Sequence record: CP103123.1
Origin: a plasmid
DNA length: 8,935 bases
Reading direction: 5' to 3' (one strand)
The notes beneath the pieces were generated by a model that worked only from the letters and a program-made list of their open reading frames with translations, did no database searches and was not told the origin of the DNA. Positions 1 through 8,935 of this stretch are shown piece by piece; position 1 is the first letter of the stretch, and every line of letters starts with the position of its first letter. The position numbers and the translations under genes were made by a program.

Positions 1-1656
1 ATGCAAAAAACCTATCTTTATTTAATGGTGTGTGTCATAGGGGCTATGTCTTTAGCTTCGTGTTCCGAAGATTCTATTTCTCCTGATGCTGGTGGCGATG
101 GCGATGGCGACAGCACTACCGAAGTGCCTTTGGCACAAGTTGCAAAACCCAAACCTAACCCTTGGCTTGCACAGGAAGAGTATAGTATTACGCACTTCAA
201 TTCGGCTCAGACTGATGCTTTCTCGTCTGCTGTCAAGGATGGAACTTTCAATATCGATCTTTCCAAGTGTCAGATGACATGGAGCGGTCCTGTTAATTTG
301 ATGACTCTTGCTTCGACTTCGCCCAATTATATGTGGGGTATGAGTAGCGACCGCGTGTCGTATCTTGACATAAGCGACGGCAAACTTGAAAGGGTTGCCG
401 AGGCTGGCTTGCCAGGGATTACAATGAAGACCCAGGAGCAACTGACACGTATAATTGCCGATCATGCTACTTACGACGAACTTTCCAAGACGGTTACCGA
501 TATATTGGGTCCGGTGCCACAAATGTCTATGGCCAACGGTAATTATGTCTTGTGCGACAAGGATAACTATGCTTACACCAATGCAGGTCAGGTAATGGCA
601 CGCTATCGCCTTGCCAATCCTAATAATCCCAAGGATGGTATCATGTTGGATCATCAGATAAGACTTACGAATTTTACCTTCGGCTCTTTTACACTCGTAG
701 GCGCTACTATGACCTATGACGGACACCTTGTTGTGGCTGCTCAGAACGGACTTCTTGTGCTGAATCGTGCTCTTACTACAATCGAAGATTCATACCCTCT
801 TCCATCAGACCAGATTCTCACCAACTCTATCTGCATCGACGAGAATGGCGGTGTTTACGTAGCAAGTAACAGCCGCACACCAGGCGGAAAAGGCCTTATG
901 CAGAAACTCATCTGCAAGGACGGCAAAATCTCCACCTCCCAGGCTGATGGTGCATGGCAAGCCTATTACGACGGTGGTCCGCAAGCACCATGTATCAAAC
1001 TCGGACATGGCACTGGTTCAACGCCTACACTTATGGGCTTTGGCCAAGACAAGGACAAGCTGGTAGTTATTACCGATGGCTCTAAGCGTATGAAACTGGT
1101 AGCTTTCTGGCGTGACGAAATCCCCTCAGACGCACAGCAAGTGGCAGGATACGACAAGCGTATAGCCGGAGTGCACGAGGTTACATGTGGTCTTGGAACA
1201 TCAACAGAGTGGATACAGTCTGAGCAGTCTGTTGTAGTAGGCGGCTATGACGCCTTTGTTGTAAACAATATTAATGTTACCAATCAGGAAATAAACGACA
1301 AGATTATTGGTGTAATCGCTATTGGTCCTATTGTCAAAGGCCCTCAAGGTGCCGAGTGTGTACGTTGGAATACAAAGGAGAAAAAGTGGGAGAGTAAGTG
1401 GACGCGCAGCGATGTAAGTTCTGTAAGTATGATTCCTGCCGTAAGTATCAAGTCAGAGATGGTATTTGTATGTGGCTGGAACGATGCTTCGGGCTGGGAA
1501 GTTACAGGACTTGACTGGAAGAGTGGTGCCACACGTCACCGCAGCATATTGGGCAAGAACAACCGAGCCAATGGTGCCTACGCCATCATTCAGTATCTTG
1601 CTAACGGCGACCTTTTATTCAACTCTGTTGCCGGACCAATCCGCGTAAAATATTGA
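1..1656 (+). CDS. Predicted surface-exposed lipoprotein of unknown function, 551 aa. The N-terminal signal peptide has lipobox L-A-S-C (Cys21), followed by an acidic S-E-D-S stretch and a G/D-rich linker.
   Basis: The ORF spans the interval with no internal stops. The hydrophobic N-terminus MQKTYLYLMVCVIGAMSLASC fits a type II signal peptide. The +2 to +5 residues SEDS resemble the Bacteroidetes lipoprotein export signal. A (GGCGAT)3 repeat encodes GDGDGD. No family was recognised for the mature domain. The true start could lie upstream of the window, but the intact signal peptide argues the start is at position 1. Confidence 0.7.
   Translation: MQKTYLYLMVCVIGAMSLASCSEDSISPDAGGDGDGDSTTEVPLAQVAKPKPNPWLAQEEYSITHFNSAQTDAFSSAVKDGTFNIDLSKCQMTWSGPVNLMTLASTSPNYMWGMSSDRVSYLDISDGKLERVAEAGLPGITMKTQEQLTRIIADHATYDELSKTVTDILGPVPQMSMANGNYVLCDKDNYAYTNAGQVMARYRLANPNNPKDGIMLDHQIRLTNFTFGSFTLVGATMTYDGHLVVAAQNGLLVLNRALTTIEDSYPLPSDQILTNSICIDENGGVYVASNSRTPGGKGLMQKLICKDGKISTSQADGAWQAYYDGGPQAPCIKLGHGTGSTPTLMGFGQDKDKLVVITDGSKRMKLVAFWRDEIPSDAQQVAGYDKRIAGVHEVTCGLGTSTEWIQSEQSVVVGGYDAFVVNNINVTNQEINDKIIGVIAIGPIVKGPQGAECVRWNTKEKKWESKWTRSDVSSVSMIPAVSIKSEMVFVCGWNDASGWEVTGLDWKSGATRHRSILGKNNRANGAYAIIQYLANGDLLFNSVAGPIRVKY
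94..111 (+). repeat. Tandem hexanucleotide repeat (GGCGAT/GGCGAC) x3, in frame within the lipoprotein linker
   Basis: Read directly: ggcgat ggcgat ggcgac, encoding G-D-G-D-G-D. Confidence 0.6.
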
Positions 1657-2144: not shown

Positions 2145-2210
2145 GGAGAGTGAAACGTCCCTTTACAAATGCGGCGTGCGGAGTTACCTTTGTGCCGGAA
2201 AATAGAAAAA

Positions 2211-3089
2211 TCACATGCCCATTCCGAAACCTCTGCTCCTTTTTGGCTTCTTCAGGAGTTCCAGATCTTCCTCCTGCTGCTTCTTTTTGGGAATAGGCTG
2301 CTCGATGTCCGGCGTTTTCTCCACCTGTTGATTTTTCGACTTCTCCGGCTCCTGCCGGGATTGAAGCTCTGCTTTGAGTTTGTCCCATTTCTCCTTTCTG
2401 ATGCGTTCCGCACGTTCCACCTGCCGGGCTATTTCCGCCGGACTTCCGTTCTTGACGGCATTAAGATAGTCGAAGCTTTCCTCCGGCTCCCGGTCAAACC
2501 CCATGCGCCGATCAAAAGAGCTTTCACACTTCCGGAAAAAATCCGTCCGGTCAAAACCTCCCTTCACGTTGCCGCAGTTCTTCTTCCCGGTGTGGTTCGT
2601 TTTAGGGCTTAACTTCCTGGTGTTGCTCCGGTCTTTCCGGCTGACGATGATATGTGCGTGCATATCGCTGTCACTTTCACCGTCCCGGTTGAAATGGATC
2701 TTTGCATAATATTCCACATCATCGCTTTTCAAGCCTTTTCCGAAGCCCTCCGCATAGTTTCTCATCACATCCTGCCGTATGTACCGCCGTAAGGCTTCCG
2801 CACACTCCTGCGGAGTTCTGCCCATGCAGCGCAGCTCCTTCTCTGAAGGGCTGACAGTGATAACATAGAACTTTGCGTCAGTCCGGCTTAACTTAGCCTT
2901 GTTGTTGTCTATCTTGAATGTGACCTCCCTTGCGCTCACGTAGTCCCGGAACTGGTTGAAGAACGGCTGCACCTCCTCCCCTTTCTTCATCCTCTCCAAA
3001 TCCTCATGCTGGAGATAGTTCGTCACCGCAACACAACTGCCTGTATTGGCATATGTGCCGTTACCGCTTCCCTGTATCTTCACGTTCAT
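2211..3089 (-). CDS. mobB: Mobilization relaxase of the MobB/BmgA-like MOBP type (relaxase/mobilization nuclease domain), 292 aa
   Basis: The N-terminus MNVKIQGSGNG...AVTNYLQHEDLE matches the MxxKIxxGS...xxNYxxxE catalytic-tyrosine motif I of Bacteroides MobB/RP4 TraI-type relaxases. The histidine triad motif III reads HFNRDGESDSDMHAHIIVS. The C-terminus is a K/E-rich low-complexity tail. The start codon overlaps the upstream gene's stop (ATGA). Confidence 0.8.
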   Translation of the reverse strand: MNVKIQGSGNGTYANTGSCVAVTNYLQHEDLERMKKGEEVQPFFNQFRDYVSAREVTFKIDNNKAKLSRTDAKFYVITVSPSEKELRCMGRTPQECAEALRRYIRQDVMRNYAEGFGKGLKSDDVEYYAKIHFNRDGESDSDMHAHIIVSRKDRSNTRKLSPKTNHTGKKNCGNVKGGFDRTDFFRKCESSFDRRMGFDREPEESFDYLNAVKNGSPAEIARQVERAERIRKEKWDKLKAELQSRQEPEKSKNQQVEKTPDIEQPIPKKKQQEEDLELLKKPKRSRGFGMGM

Positions 3090-3691
3090 ATCTTTTCCCT
3101 TTTGTTCTTCTCGTTCTTGTACAAGGCTTTTATATCATCGAAAAGCCCGGCTTTTCCTTTCGCATCGATATAGCTTGCGATATAGGAGAAGATCTTCTCC
3201 TGCCTTTGCGTCACAGCGTCCAGCCTTGCATAAATGGCTTGTTGGTTCTTCAGAAGCATATCCCTCGACTGACCGACTGCCTTTTCCGCCCGGTCCAAAG
3301 CCTGCTCCCTTATCCCGGCAAGGCTTGCAAGGTCACGCATGAATAGGTCATTGTCTTTTTGGTATTGGCTGAACTTTTTTTCCGTAAGTATCGAGTCCAT
3401 GCTCATGGTCACTCTCATGCTTGTACTGCCCATGGCTTCACAAGCCGGACGCAAGAAATCCTGCTCCTGCTTTCTGATGAACGCTATCACCTGATCACAG
3501 CGTTTGATAAGTTTCTGCATTTCCTTTGCCGGACTCTCATGCTCAACCGGGTTGATGCCGTACTTCTCGAAGTACTCCAGCGCACAGGAAAGGAACTCTT
3601 TCTTTGATACATTATTGGACTTTGCCAGCCTATCAAGCCGGGCAAACGTTTTTCGGTCAATGGTGACAGAAGTGGTGGTTTCCTTATCCAT
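3086..3691 (-). CDS. mobA: MobA-like relaxosome accessory protein (ribbon-helix-helix N-terminus, BfmA/MobA family of Bacteroides mobilizable elements), 201 aa
   Basis: The N-terminus TSVTIDRKTFARLDRLAKSNNVSKKEFLSCALEYF is RHH-like. The gene sits immediately upstream of, and is translationally coupled to, the relaxase gene. This two-gene arrangement matches the Bacteroides mobA-mobB / bmgB-bmgA modules. Confidence 0.7.
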   Translation of the reverse strand: MDKETTTSVTIDRKTFARLDRLAKSNNVSKKEFLSCALEYFEKYGINPVEHESPAKEMQKLIKRCDQVIAFIRKQEQDFLRPACEAMGSTSMRVTMSMDSILTEKKFSQYQKDNDLFMRDLASLAGIREQALDRAEKAVGQSRDMLLKNQQAIYARLDAVTQRQEKIFSYIASYIDAKGKAGLFDDIKALYKNEKNKREKI

Positions 3692-3738
3692 ACAATTGCG
3701 GTTTTAATTGCTGTTTATATTATTAAATCTCTGATTTC

Positions 3739-3767
3739 CAAAGGTATGATTTTAACCACAATTTCAA
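3739..3767 (-). promoter_or_regulatory. Candidate Bacteroides sigma-A promoter for the mob operon: -7 box TAccTTTG (plus-strand 3739-3746 as caaaggta) and a -33 TTTG (3764-3767)
   Basis: The minus-strand reading matches the Bacteroides -7 consensus TAnnTTTG exactly, about 48 bp upstream of the mobA ATG. The -33 TTTG lies about 17 bp further upstream. Confidence 0.4.
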
Positions 3768-3792
3768 ACTAATTGCGGTTAAAAAACTTAAA

Positions 3793-3861
3793 CGGCTGAT
3801 ATTCAGCCGTAACCCCGTAGGGCAAGAGGAAAAACAGGGTAAAGCCCGGTTTCCTCTTGCT
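3793..3861. promoter_or_regulatory. Candidate oriT, a cluster of inverted repeats upstream of mobA. One is a 7-bp-arm palindrome cggctga-tat-tcagccg (3793-3809). The other is a perfect 11-bp inverted repeat gcaagaggaaa / tttcctcttgc (3822-3832 / 3850-3860) whose loop contains a nested ggg-taaag-ccc hairpin.
   Basis: The inverted repeats are read directly from the sequence. A location just upstream of the accessory and relaxase genes is typical for the oriT of MOBP-type Bacteroides elements. The nic site itself cannot be assigned from sequence alone. Confidence 0.4.
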
Positions 3862-4027
3862 ATTCTTTCGACTGCCGAGCAATCGACGAACACCCTCCCC
3901 TGCGGTACGGCGAAAGCTCGTACAAGGGGGACGGGGAGAAGTCGGAGCGAGGCACAAAGAAAGAACCTATTCCACAAACAAAAAAACACATCAAAACGGC
4001 ACAACAGGCTGCATAAAATATCAATAT

Positions 4028-4063
4028 TTTGTTTCGCTATATGGAAACAAAATATTATCTTTG
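4028..4063 (+). promoter_or_regulatory. Candidate promoter of the toxin-antitoxin operon: -7 box TAtcTTTG (4056-4063) and a possible -33 TTTG (4028-4031, with a long 24-bp spacing)
   Basis: There is an exact TAnnTTTG match 20 bp upstream of the ATG at 4083. The motif continues as CTTTGCAACA, a 10-mer that also occurs upstream of the 6502 gene. Confidence 0.4.
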
Positions 4064-4082
4064 CAACACTAAAAAACTTTAT

Positions 4083-4430
4083 ATGGAAGCAAAATCAAGA
4101 TTCAAGGTCAAATTATCCAACGAAGCCCAAGAGTTTTTAGACGGATTGCCCAACAAGGTACGTGAGAAGATCATTAGCAATATTCGTAAATCCACCTTTG
4201 TACTTGATCCAGATTTATTCAAGAAATTGGATGATACGGATATTTGGGAATTCAGAACGTTCTATAACAAAACCAAGTACAGGCTTCTTGCTTTTTGGGA
4301 TAAGGACGATAAGATAAACACTCTGGTAATCGCAACACATGGGTTTATCAAGAAAACCCAAAAGACACCTCCCAAAGAAATAGCCAAAGCCGAAGAGATT
4401 AGAAAAGATTATTTTAATTCAAAAAGATAA
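4083..4430 (+). CDS. higB: Type II toxin of the RelE/ParE superfamily, HigB-like (phage Gp49-like family), 115 aa. The ORF track extends to TTG 4029 and ATG 4041, but 4083 fits the family length and the promoter position.
   Basis: The sequence ...EFLDGLPNKVREKI...LFKKLDDTDIWEFRT...YRLLAFW...TLVIATHGFIKKTQKTPPKEIAKAEEIRKDY matches the conserved pattern of the Gp49-like HigB toxins common in Bacteroidales (FL..L..KV..K...FKKL...DIWE.R...YR.L.F....L..GF.KK.QKTPK.EI..A...DY). It is followed 5 bp later by an XRE antitoxin gene. Confidence 0.8.
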   Translation: MEAKSRFKVKLSNEAQEFLDGLPNKVREKIISNIRKSTFVLDPDLFKKLDDTDIWEFRTFYNKTKYRLLAFWDKDDKINTLVIATHGFIKKTQKTPPKEIAKAEEIRKDYFNSKR

Positions 4431-4435
4431 AGCGT

Positions 4436-4750
4436 ATGGAAGCAAAGAAATTTTATACACTCGAAGAAATCGAGGATAAATACATCGGAGAAAAAGGTAC
4501 TCCCAAACGTGATGCCTACGAAGAAGAACTTAACTCTTTTTTGATAGGTGAAGCCATTAAACAAGCTCGCCAATCAAAGAACTTAACCCAAGAGGAATTA
4601 GGTAATCTGATAGGAGTGCAACGGGCTCAAATCTCCCGAATTGAAAACGGTAAGAATTTAACCTTTTCCACCATTGCAAGAGTTTTTAAGGCTATGGGGA
4701 TAAGTGCTAAACTTGAAATCGGAAGCATGGGTAAAGTTGCGTTATGGTAA
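4436..4750 (+). CDS. higA: XRE-family helix-turn-helix antitoxin / transcriptional regulator (HigA-like), 104 aa
   Basis: Canonical XRE HTH: NLTQEELGNLIGVQRAQISRIENGKNLTFSTIARVFKAMG. The gene sits immediately downstream of the toxin gene, matching the higBA gene order with toxin first. Confidence 0.85.
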   Translation: MEAKKFYTLEEIEDKYIGEKGTPKRDAYEEELNSFLIGEAIKQARQSKNLTQEELGNLIGVQRAQISRIENGKNLTFSTIARVFKAMGISAKLEIGSMGKVALW

Positions 4751-4780
4751 CTAACTATACAACAAAAAGTTACATTAAAT

Positions 4781-4805
4781 CCGGGATGCGTTTTCGCTCC
4801 CGGAA
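4781..4805 (+). terminator. Hairpin (7-bp stem tccggga / tcccgga, 11-nt loop) followed by a T-rich stretch, 30 bp after the higA stop. Candidate intrinsic terminator.
   Basis: Read from the sequence: tccgggatgcgttttcgctcccggaaacttcttgttttat. Confidence 0.4.
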
Positions 4806-5077
4806 ACTTCTTGTTTTATACATTAAAAGTCATATTTATACAAAATTTAACACGCCAAAAAATCTTCCTAATCCGTTGCACTTGGCTTTACTTGTTTCCA
4901 CTCTCTCCCATTCTCCGGAAATTCGTCGTATCAAAAAACACGCTGAAAAGTGGAGCGAAGCGACCTCTATAAACCAAAAAAGAAACACTCCATTGCTTTA
5001 CGGTAATTTTTAGTAGTTCTTTTTAGTTACTTTTACGGCATAGCATAACACATTGTGCTGTAATATCTTACAAAGGT

Positions 5078-5200
5078 CATCTACGACAAATTTCCGAGCA
5101 TCTACGACAAATTTCCGAGCATCTACGACAAATTTCCGAAAAAAACGGTTATCTACGACAAATATTCTACGCCATATATTTGTTTTTGTCGTAGATAAAT
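5078..5200. repeat. Iteron-type replication origin (oriV). It has three tandem 21-bp direct repeats of catctacgacaaatttccgag (5078-5098, 5099-5119, 5120-5140, the last with one mismatch), a fourth spaced partial copy atctacgacaaat (5151-5163) and an inverted partial copy tttgtcgtagataaat (5185-5200), all within an AT-rich stretch.
   Basis: The repeats are read directly from the sequence. The array sits immediately upstream of a Rep_3-family initiator gene, the standard iteron/Rep arrangement of theta plasmids. Confidence 0.8.
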
Positions 5201-5210
5201 ATTTCCTTTG
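5179..5210 (+). promoter_or_regulatory. Candidate rep promoter: -33 TTTG (5179-5182) and a near-consensus -7 box TTccTTTG (5203-5210, one mismatch). The inverted iteron half-site (5185-5200) lies between the two elements and is a probable autorepression operator.
   Basis: The motif positions are read from the sequence. The autoregulation model follows from established iteron-plasmid biology (Rep binding to an inverted iteron over its own promoter) and is an inference. Confidence 0.35.
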
Positions 5211-5227
5211 CGAAAAGCATTAAAGTC

Positions 5228-6195
5228 ATGGAGAAGAAAGACAAGAAACAGAGGGATATAGTCCTGTCGCAAGACAATGCGCTGACTACCGCACGCTACA
5301 AGTTCGACCTTATCGAAAAACGTGCCCTATACTCCATTATACGAAATATCCGGGCGCAATACATCGAGAACGAGAACGGCAGACGGGACTTATTCGATGA
5401 TCTGATTATCACCATACACGAGGAAGAACTAAAGAAATGCGGTGACAATACCAAGATGCAAAACATCTACGATGCGCTAAAACGGCTTAGAAATCGCGAT
5501 ATAGAGATTAACAACGAAAAAATGTGGCTAAGTATCGGTTTTGTCAATTACGTCAAGCATATCAAAAATAAATCGTATTTTGAGGTGCAAGTTTCCAAAG
5601 AGGTACTACCCTATTACGTGGAACTCGCCCAAAACTTCACGAGTTACTCCATGACGGTAGCAATCGCACTCAAAAGCACATTCTCGCAAAGGTTTTACGA
5701 ACTGTGCTGCCAATACCGAAACGCCGGGTTCTTTTTCTACACAGTCGAAAAGCTTCGGGAAATGTTCATGTTGGAAAAGAAATACAAACGGGGATGCGAT
5801 TTCAAAAGGCGTGTACTTGACGATCCGCAAAGGAGTTGTACAATGCCGGACAATGCGATTTATACTTCGAGTTCGAGCCAAAGAGCTACAAAGGCAAGGA
5901 AGTTACCGAATACAAATTCTACGTTTACACAAGGCAAACCGAACAACAAAAGCTATTGGAATACGAAAGCGCAAAACAGGCGATCATCTACATAACAACC
6001 ACTATTTCGAGGTTCTCTAAAAGTGACAAAGGATATGTTAAGCGTGTAGTGAATGCCGTACAGTTACACCCGGAAATAGCCGTACAGGTGGCGCAAAAGA
6101 TACAAAAGAAGTTTGAGCAATATATAGACAAGCCAGCCAAACAGATAGGGGCTATCATCCGGGTTTGCTTAATGGAAGATTTTGGTATAGAATAA
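5228..6195 (+). pseudogene. repA: Rep_3-family plasmid replication initiator (RepA) interrupted by a -1 frameshift at an A3 run (5829-5831). The N-terminal 201 codons are in one frame (ORF 5228-5995) and the C-terminal 121 codons in another (from 5830 to 6195). Adding one A restores a 322-aa protein.
   Basis: The N-terminus DIVLSQDNALTTARYKFDLIEKRALYSIIRNI matches the Rep_3 signature (SNALIEASYRLSL.EQRLIL-type). The sequence DFKRRVLDDPQ in frame A followed by KELYNAGQCDLYFEFEPKSYKGKEVTEYKFYV in frame B matches the Rep_3 C-terminal pattern FKKRVLEPAIKEINEKTDLKVSYEEIKKGRKVTAIKF. The frame-A tail after the shift is low-complexity junk. Confidence 0.8.
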
Positions 6196-6208
6196 AAAAC
6201 ATACAAGT

Positions 6209-6388
6209 ATGAAAACAGGTGATAAAGTTATCGTACCAGCCGAAATAAACGGCTATGGCAGAGATTTACGGGCAATAGTTACAGAGATAGAGAAGTTCGC
6301 CGGGGCAATATTCGTAACAGTGATATTCACCGAACCATGTCCGGAAGCCTGCGGAAGAGGGGGGGTGTTTACCATGACTTCCAGCTAA
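6209..6388 (+). CDS. Small hypothetical protein, 59 aa (MKTGDKVIVPAEINGYGRDLRAIVTEIEKFAGAIFVTVIFTEPCPEACGRGGVFTMTSS), 13 bp downstream of rep. It is absent from the ORF track because it falls below the length cutoff.
   Basis: It is an ATG-initiated open frame with plausible composition, tightly packed after rep. No family was recognised. It contains a G7 homopolymer (6359-6365). Confidence 0.3.
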   Translation: MKTGDKVIVPAEINGYGRDLRAIVTEIEKFAGAIFVTVIFTEPCPEACGRGGVFTMTSS

Positions 6389-6404
6389 TAGCAAGGTGAT
6401 TTAT

Positions 6405-6476
6405 TTTGCTATAATCGCAATAAATTGCAATAATATCTGTGATAAATTGCTATAATAATACTTATAACTACCTTTG
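6405..6476 (+). promoter_or_regulatory. Upstream control region of the 6502 gene. It has direct repeats of gctataat (6408-6415, 6449-6456) and ataaattgc (6418-6426, 6443-6451), and an exact -7 box TAccTTTG (6469-6476) within the shared 10-mer CTTTGCAACA.
   Basis: Read from the sequence. The -7 box lies 26 bp upstream of the ATG at 6502. Confidence 0.4.
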
Positions 6477-6501
6477 CAACAGAATATAGCATTTTACAGC
6501 A

Positions 6502-7023
6502 ATGGAGAAAGGACAGGAAAGCAAGCAAAAGAGGAAAACACCGCTTACCACCATAGCGATAAGCCAAGAGTACGCCAAAAAATTAGACGAGTATTTAAAC
6601 GGTACGGGTATAACTCGCAAAGAATTTGTCGAGTTGTCCGTTGATTATTTCCAAAGAACCGGGTTCGACCTCCGGGGTGAAGCTTTTGACCTCTCCCCAT
6701 TAGAAAAGGTTGCCGGGCGGCTGGAACAATCCGCAAAGATCATGGAACGACACAACGAGGGGACGGAAGCGGTGCACCTGCTTCTCCAAGCTGTCCGGGA
6801 ACAGACCGCCAAGCAACTCCCAGCGCCGGAACTGATCGCCCATGCTGCCGAAGAAAAAGCAAAGGCAGAAGCCAAAAGCGAAGAACAAGAAAGGGAGATT
6901 GCCCGGCTACGCTCCGAAAACTCCGCTTTGCTGGAGTACAAAGAAAAGGCATACCGGGAACTATGCCGGATACGTGATGAACAAAAAACCATAGGGAAGA
7001 TAAAAGTAAATATAGAGTTATAA
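6502..7023 (+). CDS. Second MobA-like RHH protein with a C-terminal K/E/A-rich coiled coil, 173 aa. It is a paralogue of the mobA product at 3086-3691 and has no adjacent relaxase gene.
   Basis: The N-terminus LTTIAISQEYAKKLDEYLNGTGITRKEFVELSVDYFQRTGFDL aligns with the mobA product's TTSVTIDRKTFARLDRLAKSNNVSKKEFLSCALEYFEKYGINP (T.TI...A..LD.......KEF.....YF...G). The C-terminus AEEKAKAEAKSEEQEREIARLRSENSALLEYKEKAYREL is coiled-coil-like. Confidence 0.7.
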   Translation: MEKGQESKQKRKTPLTTIAISQEYAKKLDEYLNGTGITRKEFVELSVDYFQRTGFDLRGEAFDLSPLEKVAGRLEQSAKIMERHNEGTEAVHLLLQAVREQTAKQLPAPELIAHAAEEKAKAEAKSEEQEREIARLRSENSALLEYKEKAYRELCRIRDEQKTIGKIKVNIEL

Positions 7024-7048: not shown

Positions 7049-7430
7049 ATGAATAAAGAAATTTTATTTATTTATCCTTTTGCCGGATTATGCAGCACAT
7101 GAAGCTGTGTACTTTTCACAGGCTATTACAGCTGATGATTTTGCCATGAAAAAAAATCCAAAATATGTCAATAAGGTTGTCGCACCCACCTTAGAACCAA
7201 TAAGTTCGATTGGTGGATTCCGCACATTACCCGATTATTCGTTTGACACAATGCCTGATGATTATGTAGCATTGGTATTAATTGGCGGTTTTGGTTGGAA
7301 TACACCTGTTGCAGAAAAGGTTATGCCAATTATTAAAAGTGCTATTGAACAAGAAAAGGTTATAGGTGCGATTTGTAATGCAGCTTCATTCATGGCTAAG
7401 TGTGGTATTGACCGAGAAACAACATCAAAA
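7049..7430 (+). pseudogene. DJ-1/PfpI-family (class I glutamine amidotransferase-like) gene remnant. A short N-terminal ORF (MNKEILFIYPFAGLCST*) is followed, after a frameshift at a T4 run (7078-7081), by ...DDYVALVLIGGFGWNTPVAEKVMPIIKSAIEQEKVIGAICNAASFMAKCGIDRETTS. Family similarity ends near 7428.
   Basis: The core motif D.YVALVLIGG...(E/Q)KVIGAICNAAS resembles the DJ-1/PfpI D.LVLPGG...(K)PVAAICHGP nucleophile-elbow region with its Cys. The last third of the family domain is absent and is replaced by unrelated sequence. One added T at 7078-7081 would join the two frames. The weakest part of this call is whether the N-terminal piece belongs to the same gene. Confidence 0.45.
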
Positions 7431-7617
7431 ACTTTGCAGAAGTCATCCGTAATACAGAAAATCTCAGTAACTTTGTCCTCGGTAATCATAGCAATTATTG
7501 TCTGTAAACTTTTGATATTTAACACTCTAAGATTACAACAATTTTTCGCTAATCACCATTTTTCAGGCACTTATATTTCGTCGAACTCACGTTAAATTAT
7601 TTAATATACATACAATC
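7421..7617 (-). mobile_element. Probable IS982-family insertion-sequence remnant. The minus strand encodes (M)LNIKSLQTIIAMITEDKVTEIFCITDDFCKVFD, resembling the conserved IS982 transposase N-terminus (..E.I..(F/Y)C.VDDF.K). The remnant's left end presumably lies within 7526-7617, and the rest of the transposase is missing.
   Basis: The peptide was read from the minus strand (GTG at 7523-7525, internal ATG at 7487-7489). The point where the IS-like peptide ends coincides with where DJ-1 similarity ends on the plus strand (about 7428). Terminal inverted repeats were not identified. Confidence 0.35.
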
Positions 7618-7659
7618 TTGGATACTTGCTTAGACCTTATTGCTCTTCAATATACTTGC

Positions 7660-8715
7660 ATGATTGTGATGGCCATGCTTGCATTTTTTGTGTTTGTGTC
7701 GCGCTACTATGTAACTTGCCGTAACAGACAGTTTGAGCAGTCGCGTTGGATGATTGTTGTGGCATTACTATTGTTTGTTGTACACTACATGTGTCAGATG
7801 CGGTTGGGTTGGCGACAACAGGGGAACGATGTGGGTGTTCTGTTTAATCTGCTGTTTTATTCGCCTTCGGCTATTTTGTTGTCATGGTCGCAGCTTAATA
7901 TTCTGCGCGCTGGGCATAGACGTTGGAGTTTTATGCGCTATGGCGTTGTTGGATATGCTCTTATGGTATTGTGCATAGTCGCAGGTGTTATTTCAAATGG
8001 CAGTCTGCATATTGGTCCTATGCTATATGTTGCTGATGCTATTCATTTCTTTACTCTATTGTATTATACATGGGCACCGCTGAGGGAACTTGGTAATGTT
8101 CAACGTCGGCTCGACAGTGAACATGGTAATCCTGCAGATGCCTACCTGCGCACTATGCGCTTTGGTTTTTTTGTGGTGTGTGCTTTTGCTGTAATTTCGC
8201 CTCTTTATATATTGTCGCGGCCGCTGCTCTTTGTCTTTGGACCTTTGGGATTGATTTCGCTTTCGCTGTTTATTGTTAGTTTTACGGCGCTTGGATTTAG
8301 TATGTCCGAGGGAGTAACTGAGATTGTTACCGAGACTAACGACGAGATAGCCGCTGCTAAAGTCTTTAGGGAGATTGGGCCTGAGCGTATTGCCGAAATA
8401 GATATGGCGGTAAGCAAATGGCGAAGCGAGGGCGGTTTTAGAGATAGCAACTTGACATTATCCTCGTTTGCTCGTCGCATAATGGTTAATCGTACCGACG
8501 TTGCTTCGTATCTGACTTCCATATATGGTAAGAATTTCCGTACATGGCTTTCGGGTATTCGCGTGGAGGAGGCAAAGGCACTCATGGCTGCACACCCCGA
8601 ATATAGTAACGAGGTTGTTTCTATGGAGTGCGGTTTCTCGTCGCGTGTGTATTTTCAGCGTCTGTTCAAGGAAAGGACGGGCTTGACTCCCGCCGAGTGG
8701 CGCCGTCAACGGTAA
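7660..8715 (+). CDS. Membrane-anchored AraC-family transcriptional regulator: about 7 predicted transmembrane helices N-terminally and a C-terminal AraC-type double HTH. It is 351 aa from ATG 7660. The ORF track starts at TTG 7618, giving 365 aa.
   Basis: The hydrophobic segments are MIVMAMLAFFVFV, WMIVVALLLFVVHYM, VGVLFNLLFYSPSAILLSW, YGVVGYALMVLCIVAGVI, IGPMLYVADAIHFFTLLYYTW, FGFFVVCAFAVISPLYIL and LLFVFGPLGLISLSLFIVSFTALGF. The C-terminus SSFARRIMVNRTDVASYLTSIYGKNFRTWLSGIRVEEAKALMA...ECGFSSRVYFQRLFKERTGLTPAEWRR is a canonical AraC/XylS HTH. Confidence 0.8.
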   Translation: MIVMAMLAFFVFVSRYYVTCRNRQFEQSRWMIVVALLLFVVHYMCQMRLGWRQQGNDVGVLFNLLFYSPSAILLSWSQLNILRAGHRRWSFMRYGVVGYALMVLCIVAGVISNGSLHIGPMLYVADAIHFFTLLYYTWAPLRELGNVQRRLDSEHGNPADAYLRTMRFGFFVVCAFAVISPLYILSRPLLFVFGPLGLISLSLFIVSFTALGFSMSEGVTEIVTETNDEIAAAKVFREIGPERIAEIDMAVSKWRSEGGFRDSNLTLSSFARRIMVNRTDVASYLTSIYGKNFRTWLSGIRVEEAKALMAAHPEYSNEVVSMECGFSSRVYFQRLFKERTGLTPAEWRRQR

Positions 8716-8744
8716 TATACTGGTTATGTGTGCGTTTGCTACTG

Positions 8745-8800
8745 AATGTAAGGTGTAACTTTTGTACGAAGGTTACATAATAAGGCAAAGTGTAACCTTT
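8745..8800 (+). repeat. Direct repeats gtgtaac(t/c)ttt (8747-8757, 8790-8800) and a 9-bp inverted repeat aaggttaca / tgtaacctt (8769-8777 / 8789-8797), just downstream of the AraC-like gene
   Basis: Seen in the sequence. They could be a terminator-like hairpin or regulator-binding half-sites. Function is unknown. Confidence 0.2.
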
Positions 8801-8935
8801 CTTACTGTGACGTATCCTTTCTATAAGAGTGACACACAAGTGATGTCTTTGAGGTTTTTGATGGTTGATGCTTCCTGTATCTTTGCATGAGGAAATTCAA
8901 ACTATTCAAATATAAATTCTCAAAAACAATTCACT

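Follow-up and report, generated by a model that had tools for sequence, protein, structure and literature searches.

An apparent frameshift in the initiator gene of a common Bacteroidales Rep_3 plasmid is probably an assembly scar

The region spanning positions 5078–6195 of the window, by which we mean the whole 8,935-nt stretch of plasmid DNA that was analysed (record CP103123.1), comprises the origin and the initiator gene of a mobilizable Bacteroidales plasmid, which is complete and circular and measures ~8.945 kb when intact. The replicon is already known, as a typed and abundant plasmid family with a textbook Rep_3 layout. In the record, the reading frame of its initiator gene (rep) is broken by a 10-nt gap. 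We consider it quite likely that this break is an assembly artefact, and the account that we favor overall, and regard as likely, is that of a known replicon with a Flye end-join scar in rep. The features that bear on this account are listed below.

4911–4930, minus strand: distal inverted iteron-like site TACGACGAATTTCCGGAGAA, ~150 bp upstream of the iteron array
5007–5030, plus strand: AT-rich repeats TTTTTAGT(AG)TTC / TTTTTAGTTAC, an 11-mer motif in relatives
5078–5140, plus strand: three tandem 21-bp iterons CATCTACGACAAATTTCCGAG, exact or near-exact; the array is found in ~100 related loci
5150–5170, plus strand: fourth iteron, with a diverged 3' half, 30 nt from the third
5179–5210, plus strand: promoter-like TTTG-N20-TTCCTTTG of Bacteroides type, 17 nt upstream of the rep ATG
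5185–5198, minus strand: inverted iteron core TTTGTCGTAGATAA, the right arm of a 14-bp inverted repeat
5228–5830, plus strand: rep codons 1–201, encoding WH1 and the first part of WH2
5831/5832, plus strand: 10-nt gap, with AGGAACTCCG missing between A5831 and G5832 (most of codons 202–205, KELR)
5833–6195, plus strand: rep codons 206–325 and stop, in another frame, encoding the last part of the WH2 helix, followed by the wing (a beta-hairpin) and C-terminal helices
6209–6388, plus strand: small conserved ORF 3' of rep, 59 aa (63 aa in 7.4-kb relatives)

To compare the break with other versions of the gene, we used a gapped pattern spanning the site and recovered 122 alleles from genome and metagenome collections. 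Aligned relatives read CCGCAAA[AGGAACTCCG]GGAGTTG, and the bracketed 10 nt are absent from the window. The full 15-nt stretch was present in 122 of 122 other alleles, none of which had a 10-nt or a 9-nt deletion, and the gap is private to the window (1 of 123 alleles). An earlier note on this DNA correctly placed the switch of the rep frame at 5829–5832 and ascribed it to a single-base frameshift in an A3 run, a reading that does not survive comparison with relatives, which show the 10-nt gap (CAAA[AGGAACTCCG]GGAG). The note also suggested that the cause might be a homopolymer error in an otherwise functional plasmid; sequence error is indeed the likelier class of explanation, but a 10-nt gap is not a homopolymer miscall.

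We considered and rejected several other origins for the gap. Microhomology-mediated deletion was set aside, as a single 10-nt event has no flanking microhomology at this site. Slippage of 9 nt between two GGA repeats, accompanied by loss of 1 nt, would need two events and is unprecedented among the 122 alleles. General nanopore homopolymer noise was rejected as the cause of the 10-nt gap because the G7 allele of the record at 6359–6365, a poly-G tract in the small ORF whose length varies among contigs, is common to many Illumina contigs.

Both domains of the Rep_3 initiator family (Pfam PF01051 and PF21205) were detected above the Pfam cut-offs. Rep3_N scored 85.6 bits in the window ORF, compared to a cut-off of 22.4 bits (E = 5e-24), and this match, together with the iteron array beside rep, bears out the earlier assignment to a plasmid-type Rep_3 replicon. 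The recorded ORF (5228–5995) encodes 255 aa, runs out of frame past 5830, and corresponds to UVO67648.1, annotated as 'replication initiation protein (plasmid) [Parabacteroides distasonis]'; its exact 255-aa product had no entry in the gene-position index. In this ORF, Rep3_C is matched only over profile positions 1–27 of 59 (22.6 bits), and the match is incomplete because of the 10-nt gap. When the frame is spliced by adding one A, giving a protein of 322 aa, Rep3_C is covered over positions 1–58 of 59 (43.9 bits), the outcome anticipated in the earlier note, and the same domain is listed by precomputed Pfam annotation in P0001 and other intact relatives.

The native protein is 325 aa long, however, rather than the 322 aa that the note had proposed, and it reads ...DDPQKELRELYNAGQ... 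at the site of the gap. The 322-aa protein lacks the ELR of the WH2 recognition helix. Among 53 aligned homologues, with identities down to 33%, a 31-residue stretch at the gap had the same length in 52, was longer in one, and was shorter in none, and E203 and L204 were at least 90% conserved. Thus, the resemblance of the spliced junction to the conserved Rep_3 C-terminal pattern is superficial because none of the homologues is shorter at this point. An AlphaFold model (mean pLDDT 83; ~88–95 locally) depicts residues 189–209 as one helix and residues 215–238 as the wing. By this model, the break lies inside the WH2 recognition helix, and the recorded ORF is predicted to lack the end of this helix, the wing, and the C-terminal helices. 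The nearest solved structure is that of mini-F RepE (phmmer E ~1e-11).

Upstream of rep, the iterons were found as the earlier note had described them, with three in tandem (5078–5140), one spaced (5150–5170), and one inverted (5185–5198). A 12-mer core, ATCTACGACAAA, occurs five times with no mismatches, compared to a maximum of four matches per shuffle in 200 shuffles for which up to two mismatches were allowed. A perfect 14-bp inverted repeat is formed by 5149–5162 and 5185–5198, and its left arm is the core of the fourth iteron. The promoter-like match consists of a −33 TTTG (5179–5182), a 20-nt spacer, and an imperfect −7 box, TTCCTTTG (5203–5210), and is unique on the plus strand of the window. 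The −33 box is located between the arms of the inverted repeat, and the −7 box is immediately downstream of them. The inverted iteron does lie between the two promoter boxes, bracketed by TTTG-N20-TTCCTTTG, in an operator-like layout that the earlier note had recognized, and by analogy we presume that 5185–5198 is an operator for Rep dimers.

The distal inverted site (4911–4930) and the AT-rich repeats (5007–5030) had been overlooked in that note. The distal site matches the iteron at 14 of 15 positions over its core (4916–4930), and an inverted counterpart is found 170 nt upstream of the array in two loci with a second iteron type (L005 and L006). The AT-rich 11-mer motif, located in the window between the distal site and the iterons, corresponds to direct repeat D3 in the same two loci, and GC content dips to 0.29–0.36 upstream. 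We consider the repeats at 5007–5030 to be a candidate DNA-unwinding element. The search for DnaA boxes gave none within the origin region, and matches elsewhere with at most one mismatch were no commoner than expected by chance; Rfam and tRNA scans gave no matches. The layout of three tandem, one spaced, one inverted, and one distal inverted iteron is conserved in ~100 loci. In the second iteron type, AAAACGAGAAATTTCCG (pRGF00008, CP126065), the inverted arm co-varies with the direct repeats, and TTnnTTTG is kept at the same alignment position. At the level of sequence, the conserved layout and the co-varying inverted arm support a functional arrangement.

If this origin operates according to the paradigm of RepE, pPS10 RepA, and R6K pi, then Rep monomers would bind the four direct 21-bp iterons and open an adjacent AT-rich stretch, allowing the host replisome to be loaded for theta replication. 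The likely place of unwinding would be the AT-rich 11-mers, which lie between the distal inverted site and the array. Rep dimers, in turn, would bind the 14-bp inverted repeat that straddles the −33 and −7 boxes, occluding the promoter and repressing rep. These putative initiator, operator, and unwinding functions are assigned from homology and layout.

The window is a free circular plasmid without a second replicon, as established by the contiguity of its end with its start and by more than 20 permuted copies. The end runs into the start in more than 20 other contigs from genomes and metagenomes, which are whole-length circular permutations at least 99.5% identical to the window, and some of these contigs cross the junction for 1.2–1.5 unit lengths. 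The idea of the earlier note that the element might be maintained by integration is contradicted by these permutations. In addition, positions 7406–8935 followed by 1–1723 form a single contiguous segment in NZ_CP120354, a 99.6-kb P. distasonis plasmid. No second rep gene was found in the window. In human gut samples, the plasmid is very common and abundant. More than 15 metagenome contigs match the window over its full length at 99.5% identity or higher, at least 1000 contigs carry each of its proteins, and the exact BtgA product occurs in 49,182 indexed blocks of the collection. Its 4.8-kb backbone (2192–7023) comprises btgB, btgA, a RelE/HTH toxin–antitoxin pair, the origin, rep, the small ORF, and a BfmA-like gene, and is 97% identical to NZ_CP072235 and NZ_CP103186, 7.4-kb Bacteroidales plasmids assigned to rep_cluster_1097 / MOBB.

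Compared to 17–18 near-identical copies, the window differs consistently by six SNPs, by insertion of AG at 5015–5016, and by the 10-nt gap. All six SNP alleles were found in other loci, and only the two indels are private; the AG insertion, which lies inside the AT-rich repeats, occurred in 1 of 114 alleles. Among whole-length copies with at least 99.5% identity to the window, the intact rep allele is found. An Illumina/SPAdes contig with 47x coverage (L040) showed no mismatches to the window over ~5.9 kb and differed by indels only (+2, −10, G7 compared to G8, and +TTTA). Private indels without private substitutions are a signature of consensus or assembly error rather than of divergence. 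In other assemblies, the rate of frameshifts per nucleotide was similar in rep, btgA, btgB, and the toxin–antitoxin genes, and the broken copies came mostly from low-coverage contigs. Thus, we see no evidence that rep-defective variants circulate.

How might an assembler have produced this gap? From its accession block, species, and start at the ATG of a gene, we infer that the record belongs to the NIH BFG data set. Plasmid records of that set have UVQ or UVS accessions and start at a gene ATG; the window has UVO accessions and starts at the ATG of a gene other than rep. For the BFG genomes, ONT R9.4.1 reads were assembled by Flye 2.7 and polished with four rounds of Racon, with Medaka, and with Pilon where short reads existed, and BFG file names confirm that Circlator fixstart rotation followed polishing. 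Flye is known to lose tens of bases on circularizing a contig (Wick & Holt, PMC6966772). The 10-nt loss is at the small end of this reported range. In the sequence of events that we propose, Flye would have dropped a few bases on joining the two ends of a long-read contig, and the faulty join would have been left unrepaired because polishing worked on the linear contig. Rotation by Circlator fixstart to the gene nearest the middle would then have moved the scar to the interior of the record, inside rep. As the gap is probably an end-join loss, the plasmid in the cell very likely has an intact 325-aa Rep.

This mechanism makes a positional prediction: for a scar at a given position, the first gene of the record should be the gene nearest to the midpoint of the old contig. 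For a scar at 5832, the first gene of the window (1–1656; 1656 nt) would have occupied old positions 3104–4759, which contain the old midpoint at 4468. The permitted interval for the old junction, 4468–6124, covers 18.5% of the plasmid, however, and the positional fit of the window alone is therefore modest. The AG insertion at 5015 also falls within 4468–6124 and could be an alternative scar.

Sister BFG records give a broader view, as one private glitch was present at the predicted position of the old contig ends in each of four sister records (4/4). NZ_CP103186.1 (BFG-150; ONT-only), which we compared with an independently sequenced P. vulgatus plasmid, has an 8-nt deletion at 3933, a 1-nt deletion, and no SNPs. 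The old span of its first gene (3476–4354) contains the midpoint at 3704, and the 8-nt deletion lies within the BfmA-like gene, which is absent from the gene list of the record. CP103152.1 has a private 18-nt deletion at 4207, and these 18 nt are present in two records from outside the BFG set, NZ_CP072232.1 (100% identity) and NZ_CP054002.1 (99.5%). CP103111.1 has a private 159-nt deletion at ~4514, and CP103243.1 has an exact 80-nt tandem duplication (3808–3887 / 3888–3967) that is absent in relatives. In CP103152, CP103111, and CP103243, the protein accessions, followed in order, wrap around between the two CDSs on either side of the glitch, which provides an independent mark of the old contig ends in those three records. 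Indels of the sister records away from the junction were of 1–2 nt only, the same size as the AG insertion of the window.

The strongest rival to an assembly scar, although an unlikely one, is a real 10-bp deletion that created a rep-null plasmid, with Rep supplied in trans by wild-type copies (heteroplasmy) or by a co-resident sibling plasmid that shares its iterons. Such a derivative would retain the iterons, the toxin–antitoxin pair, and the mobilization genes (oriT/mob). Its truncated Rep, without part of the WH2 helix and the whole wing, would need complementation, and P. distasonis does have sibling plasmids with identical iterons and an intact Rep, for example NZ_CP103186. Moreover, classic consensus errors of nanopore data do not take the form of a 10-nt loss lacking microhomology, and if the AG insertion were the assembly scar, then the 10-nt deletion would be left unexplained. 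Against a real deletion, the allele is unique among 123, SNPs private to the window are absent, and rep is not otherwise decayed; frameshifts in rep are no commoner per nucleotide than those in btgA, btgB, or the toxin–antitoxin genes, and the four sister records all carry an artefact of the same kind at the predicted place. If the deletion were real, the window would represent a rep-null 'satellite' of a very common gut plasmid, replicated in trans in a Parabacteroides cell and acting as a natural cheater in an iteron-plasmid population.

We think it very unlikely that the cell makes a functional 322-aa Rep, encoded by an allele with a genuine in-frame 9-nt deletion between GGA repeats in which an A4 run was miscalled as A3. 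One extra A does restore a continuous ORF with full Rep3_C coverage, and the 9-nt spacing of GGA...GGA would allow slippage. This model requires two independent events at one spot, however, and a 9-nt-deleted allele was found in 0 of the 122 others. It also conflicts with the fixed length of this stretch in 52 of 53 homologues, to 33% identity and with none shorter, and would remove three residues from inside the high-confidence AlphaFold helix at 189–209.

Two further explanations are effectively excluded. The chance that the window holds a dead replicon within an element carried by the chromosome or by another replicon is slight indeed: although its cargo, an AraC-type regulator and a lipoprotein, is 99.4% identical to a segment of NZ_CP120354, which has the cargo but lacks the window backbone, the end of the window joins its start both in NZ_CP120354 and in the permuted copies, the length of 8935 equals that of the intact circle (~8945) minus 10, and the window has no second rep gene. 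Least probable of all is programmed −1 ribosomal frameshifting or transcriptional slippage to give full-length Rep, as a −1 shift at CAA-AGG would reach the downstream frame but the site is undeleted in 122 of 122 other copies, the full-length homologues examined are single continuous ORFs, a canonical slippery heptamer is absent, and transcriptional slippage would need a run much longer than A3.

Returning to the assembly scar, the 'truncated' initiator UVO67648.1 is probably a product of it, a result with value for curation but little biological weight. At least four other GenBank/RefSeq plasmid records, apparently from the same data set, are disrupted or altered by a scar of this type. When such records are used for pseudogene counts, plasmid typing, or pangenomes, one junction artefact is to be expected close to the middle of every rotated circular contig.

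The replicon resembles well-studied Rep_3 systems in several respects. Like RepE of mini-F (PDB 1REP, 2Z9O), pPS10 RepA, and R6K pi, its Rep has two winged-helix domains, and direct iterons adjoin the rep gene. As in those systems, an inverted partial-iteron repeat is positioned over the rep promoter, in what by analogy would be a layout for autorepression by dimers. There are also differences from the RepE system. Rep has ~85 additional C-terminal residues (helices 239–322 of the model) outside the RepE match, which stops near residue 201; RepE chains have 251–266 aa. The arms of the window operator are 36 bp apart, center to center, with the −33 box between them, the promoter is of the Bacteroides −33/−7 type, and a DnaA box above chance was not found in the window origin.

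The gap itself resembles the scar expected from a Flye gap followed by fixstart rotation, in that it is a single multi-base loss, private to the record, at the predicted position of the old contig ends; in contrast to the documented Flye artefact, use of the pipeline for this record is inferred. With respect to its backbone, the plasmid resembles the MOB-suite rep_cluster_1097 / MOBB plasmids pBvulCL06T03-1 (NZ_CP072235.1), the P. distasonis BFG-150 plasmid (NZ_CP103186.1), and pRGF00008 (HG796775.1). It differs from them in its cargo, which consists of an AraC-type regulator, a 551-aa lipoprotein, and a truncated DJ-1/PfpI ORF, and in the 10-nt rep gap, which is confined to the record of the window. 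The iterons of the BFG-150 plasmid are identical to those of the window.

Four other plasmid records in BFG, the NIH genome and plasmid data set to which the window presumably belongs, each contain a single private structural glitch around the middle of the record.

Private structural glitches in four other BFG plasmid records (position, change, record).
3933, loss of 8 nt, NZ_CP103186.1 (L008)
4207, loss of 18 nt, CP103152.1 (L134)
~4514, loss of 159 nt, CP103111.1 (L135)
3808-3967, 80-nt tandem duplication, CP103243.1 (L131)

The order of protein accessions wraps at the glitch site in three of these four records, and the 8-nt loss disrupts a BfmA-like gene in the RefSeq record NZ_CP103186.1. 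Within the window itself, an AG insertion at 5015-5016 is present in only 1 of 114 alleles, the one in this record, and falls within the first of the AT-rich 11-mer repeats in the presumed unwinding region. This dinucleotide is probably a second consensus error; alternatively, it could itself be the circularisation scar, the error left where the ends of an assembled contig are joined.

Two further sites vary among related contigs.

Variable sites in the window.
2096-2144, 27-bp segment between 11-bp inverted repeats, GGGTAAAAAAT and ATTTTTTACCC
6359-6365, poly-G tract close to the 3' end of a small ORF (6209-6388) downstream of rep

The length of the poly-G tract differs among contigs, including those from Illumina assemblies, with G7, G8, G9, G10, and also AG6-AG9 variants found and with G8 the most frequent length in the plasmid lineage of the window. 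Each tract length yields a different C-terminal tail in the small-ORF product; the product of the G7 allele in the window is present on at least 1000 contigs. The tract could be hypermutable or phase-variable, or its length variation could instead reflect a recurrent sequencing problem. The 27-bp segment occurs in both orientations, as in the window in 43 related contigs and inverted in 7 (L010 being one example). It is either a hairpin or terminator of small size that can invert, or a palindrome at which assemblers resolve the orientation ambiguously.

The cargo of the plasmid includes two genes.

Cargo genes in the window.
1-1656, 551-aa lipoprotein
7618-8715, AraC-type regulator

A segment comprising window positions 7406-8935 and 1-1723 includes this cargo and matches one uninterrupted stretch of NZ_CP120354, a 99.6-kb P. 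distasonis plasmid, at 99.4% identity. Because the left breakpoint of the cargo, at 7406, falls within a 171-aa ORF (7080-7595) that is DJ-1/PfpI-like in its N-terminal part, this ORF appears to have been fused or truncated at a recombination joint. In the Illumina/SPAdes contig L040 the plasmid takes a 5.9-kb form that lacks the regulator and lipoprotein cargo. At a TTTA microsatellite (7063-7066) the window has one unit more than L040, a copy number common to the other 8.9-kb copies of the plasmid. This block of btgA, btgB, and the lipoprotein gene, adjoining an ExoX-like gene, also occurs in two ENA contigs of 64-67 kb (L126 and L129), where the 2-kb flanks examined contain no called rep; the mobilization and cargo segment may therefore also reside within larger elements.

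The plasmid also appears in bins or records (L009-L014 and others named by their sources) that bear the labels Prevotella, Saccharibacteria, Helicobacter pylori, Paratractidigestivibacter, E. coli, and Neisseria gonorrhoeae. Such labels almost certainly arose because a high-copy gut plasmid was mis-binned or was present as a contaminant. Several metagenome contigs, CEAB01001261.1 (78 kb, containing loci L015, L021, L044, and L074), OIPH01000166.1, UOJD01002290, and OOAC01001079.1, have 2-4 copies of the rep site apiece, and the L074 alignment spans 1.5 unit lengths of the window. In these contigs the units are joined head to tail as concatemers, which are real multimers or else artefacts of assembly.

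Alignment of plasmids carrying the two iteron types (alignment A1) revealed that rep is a mosaic between them (columns ~200-900 versus 910-1190). In this alignment, divergence in the 5' two-thirds of rep, encoding both winged-helix domains (WH1 and WH2), goes with divergence in the left half of the iteron, whereas the two types hardly differ in the last ~280 nt of rep or in the right half of the iteron (AAATTTCCG). This shared pattern of rep and iteron divergence suggests recombination within rep and modular specificity.
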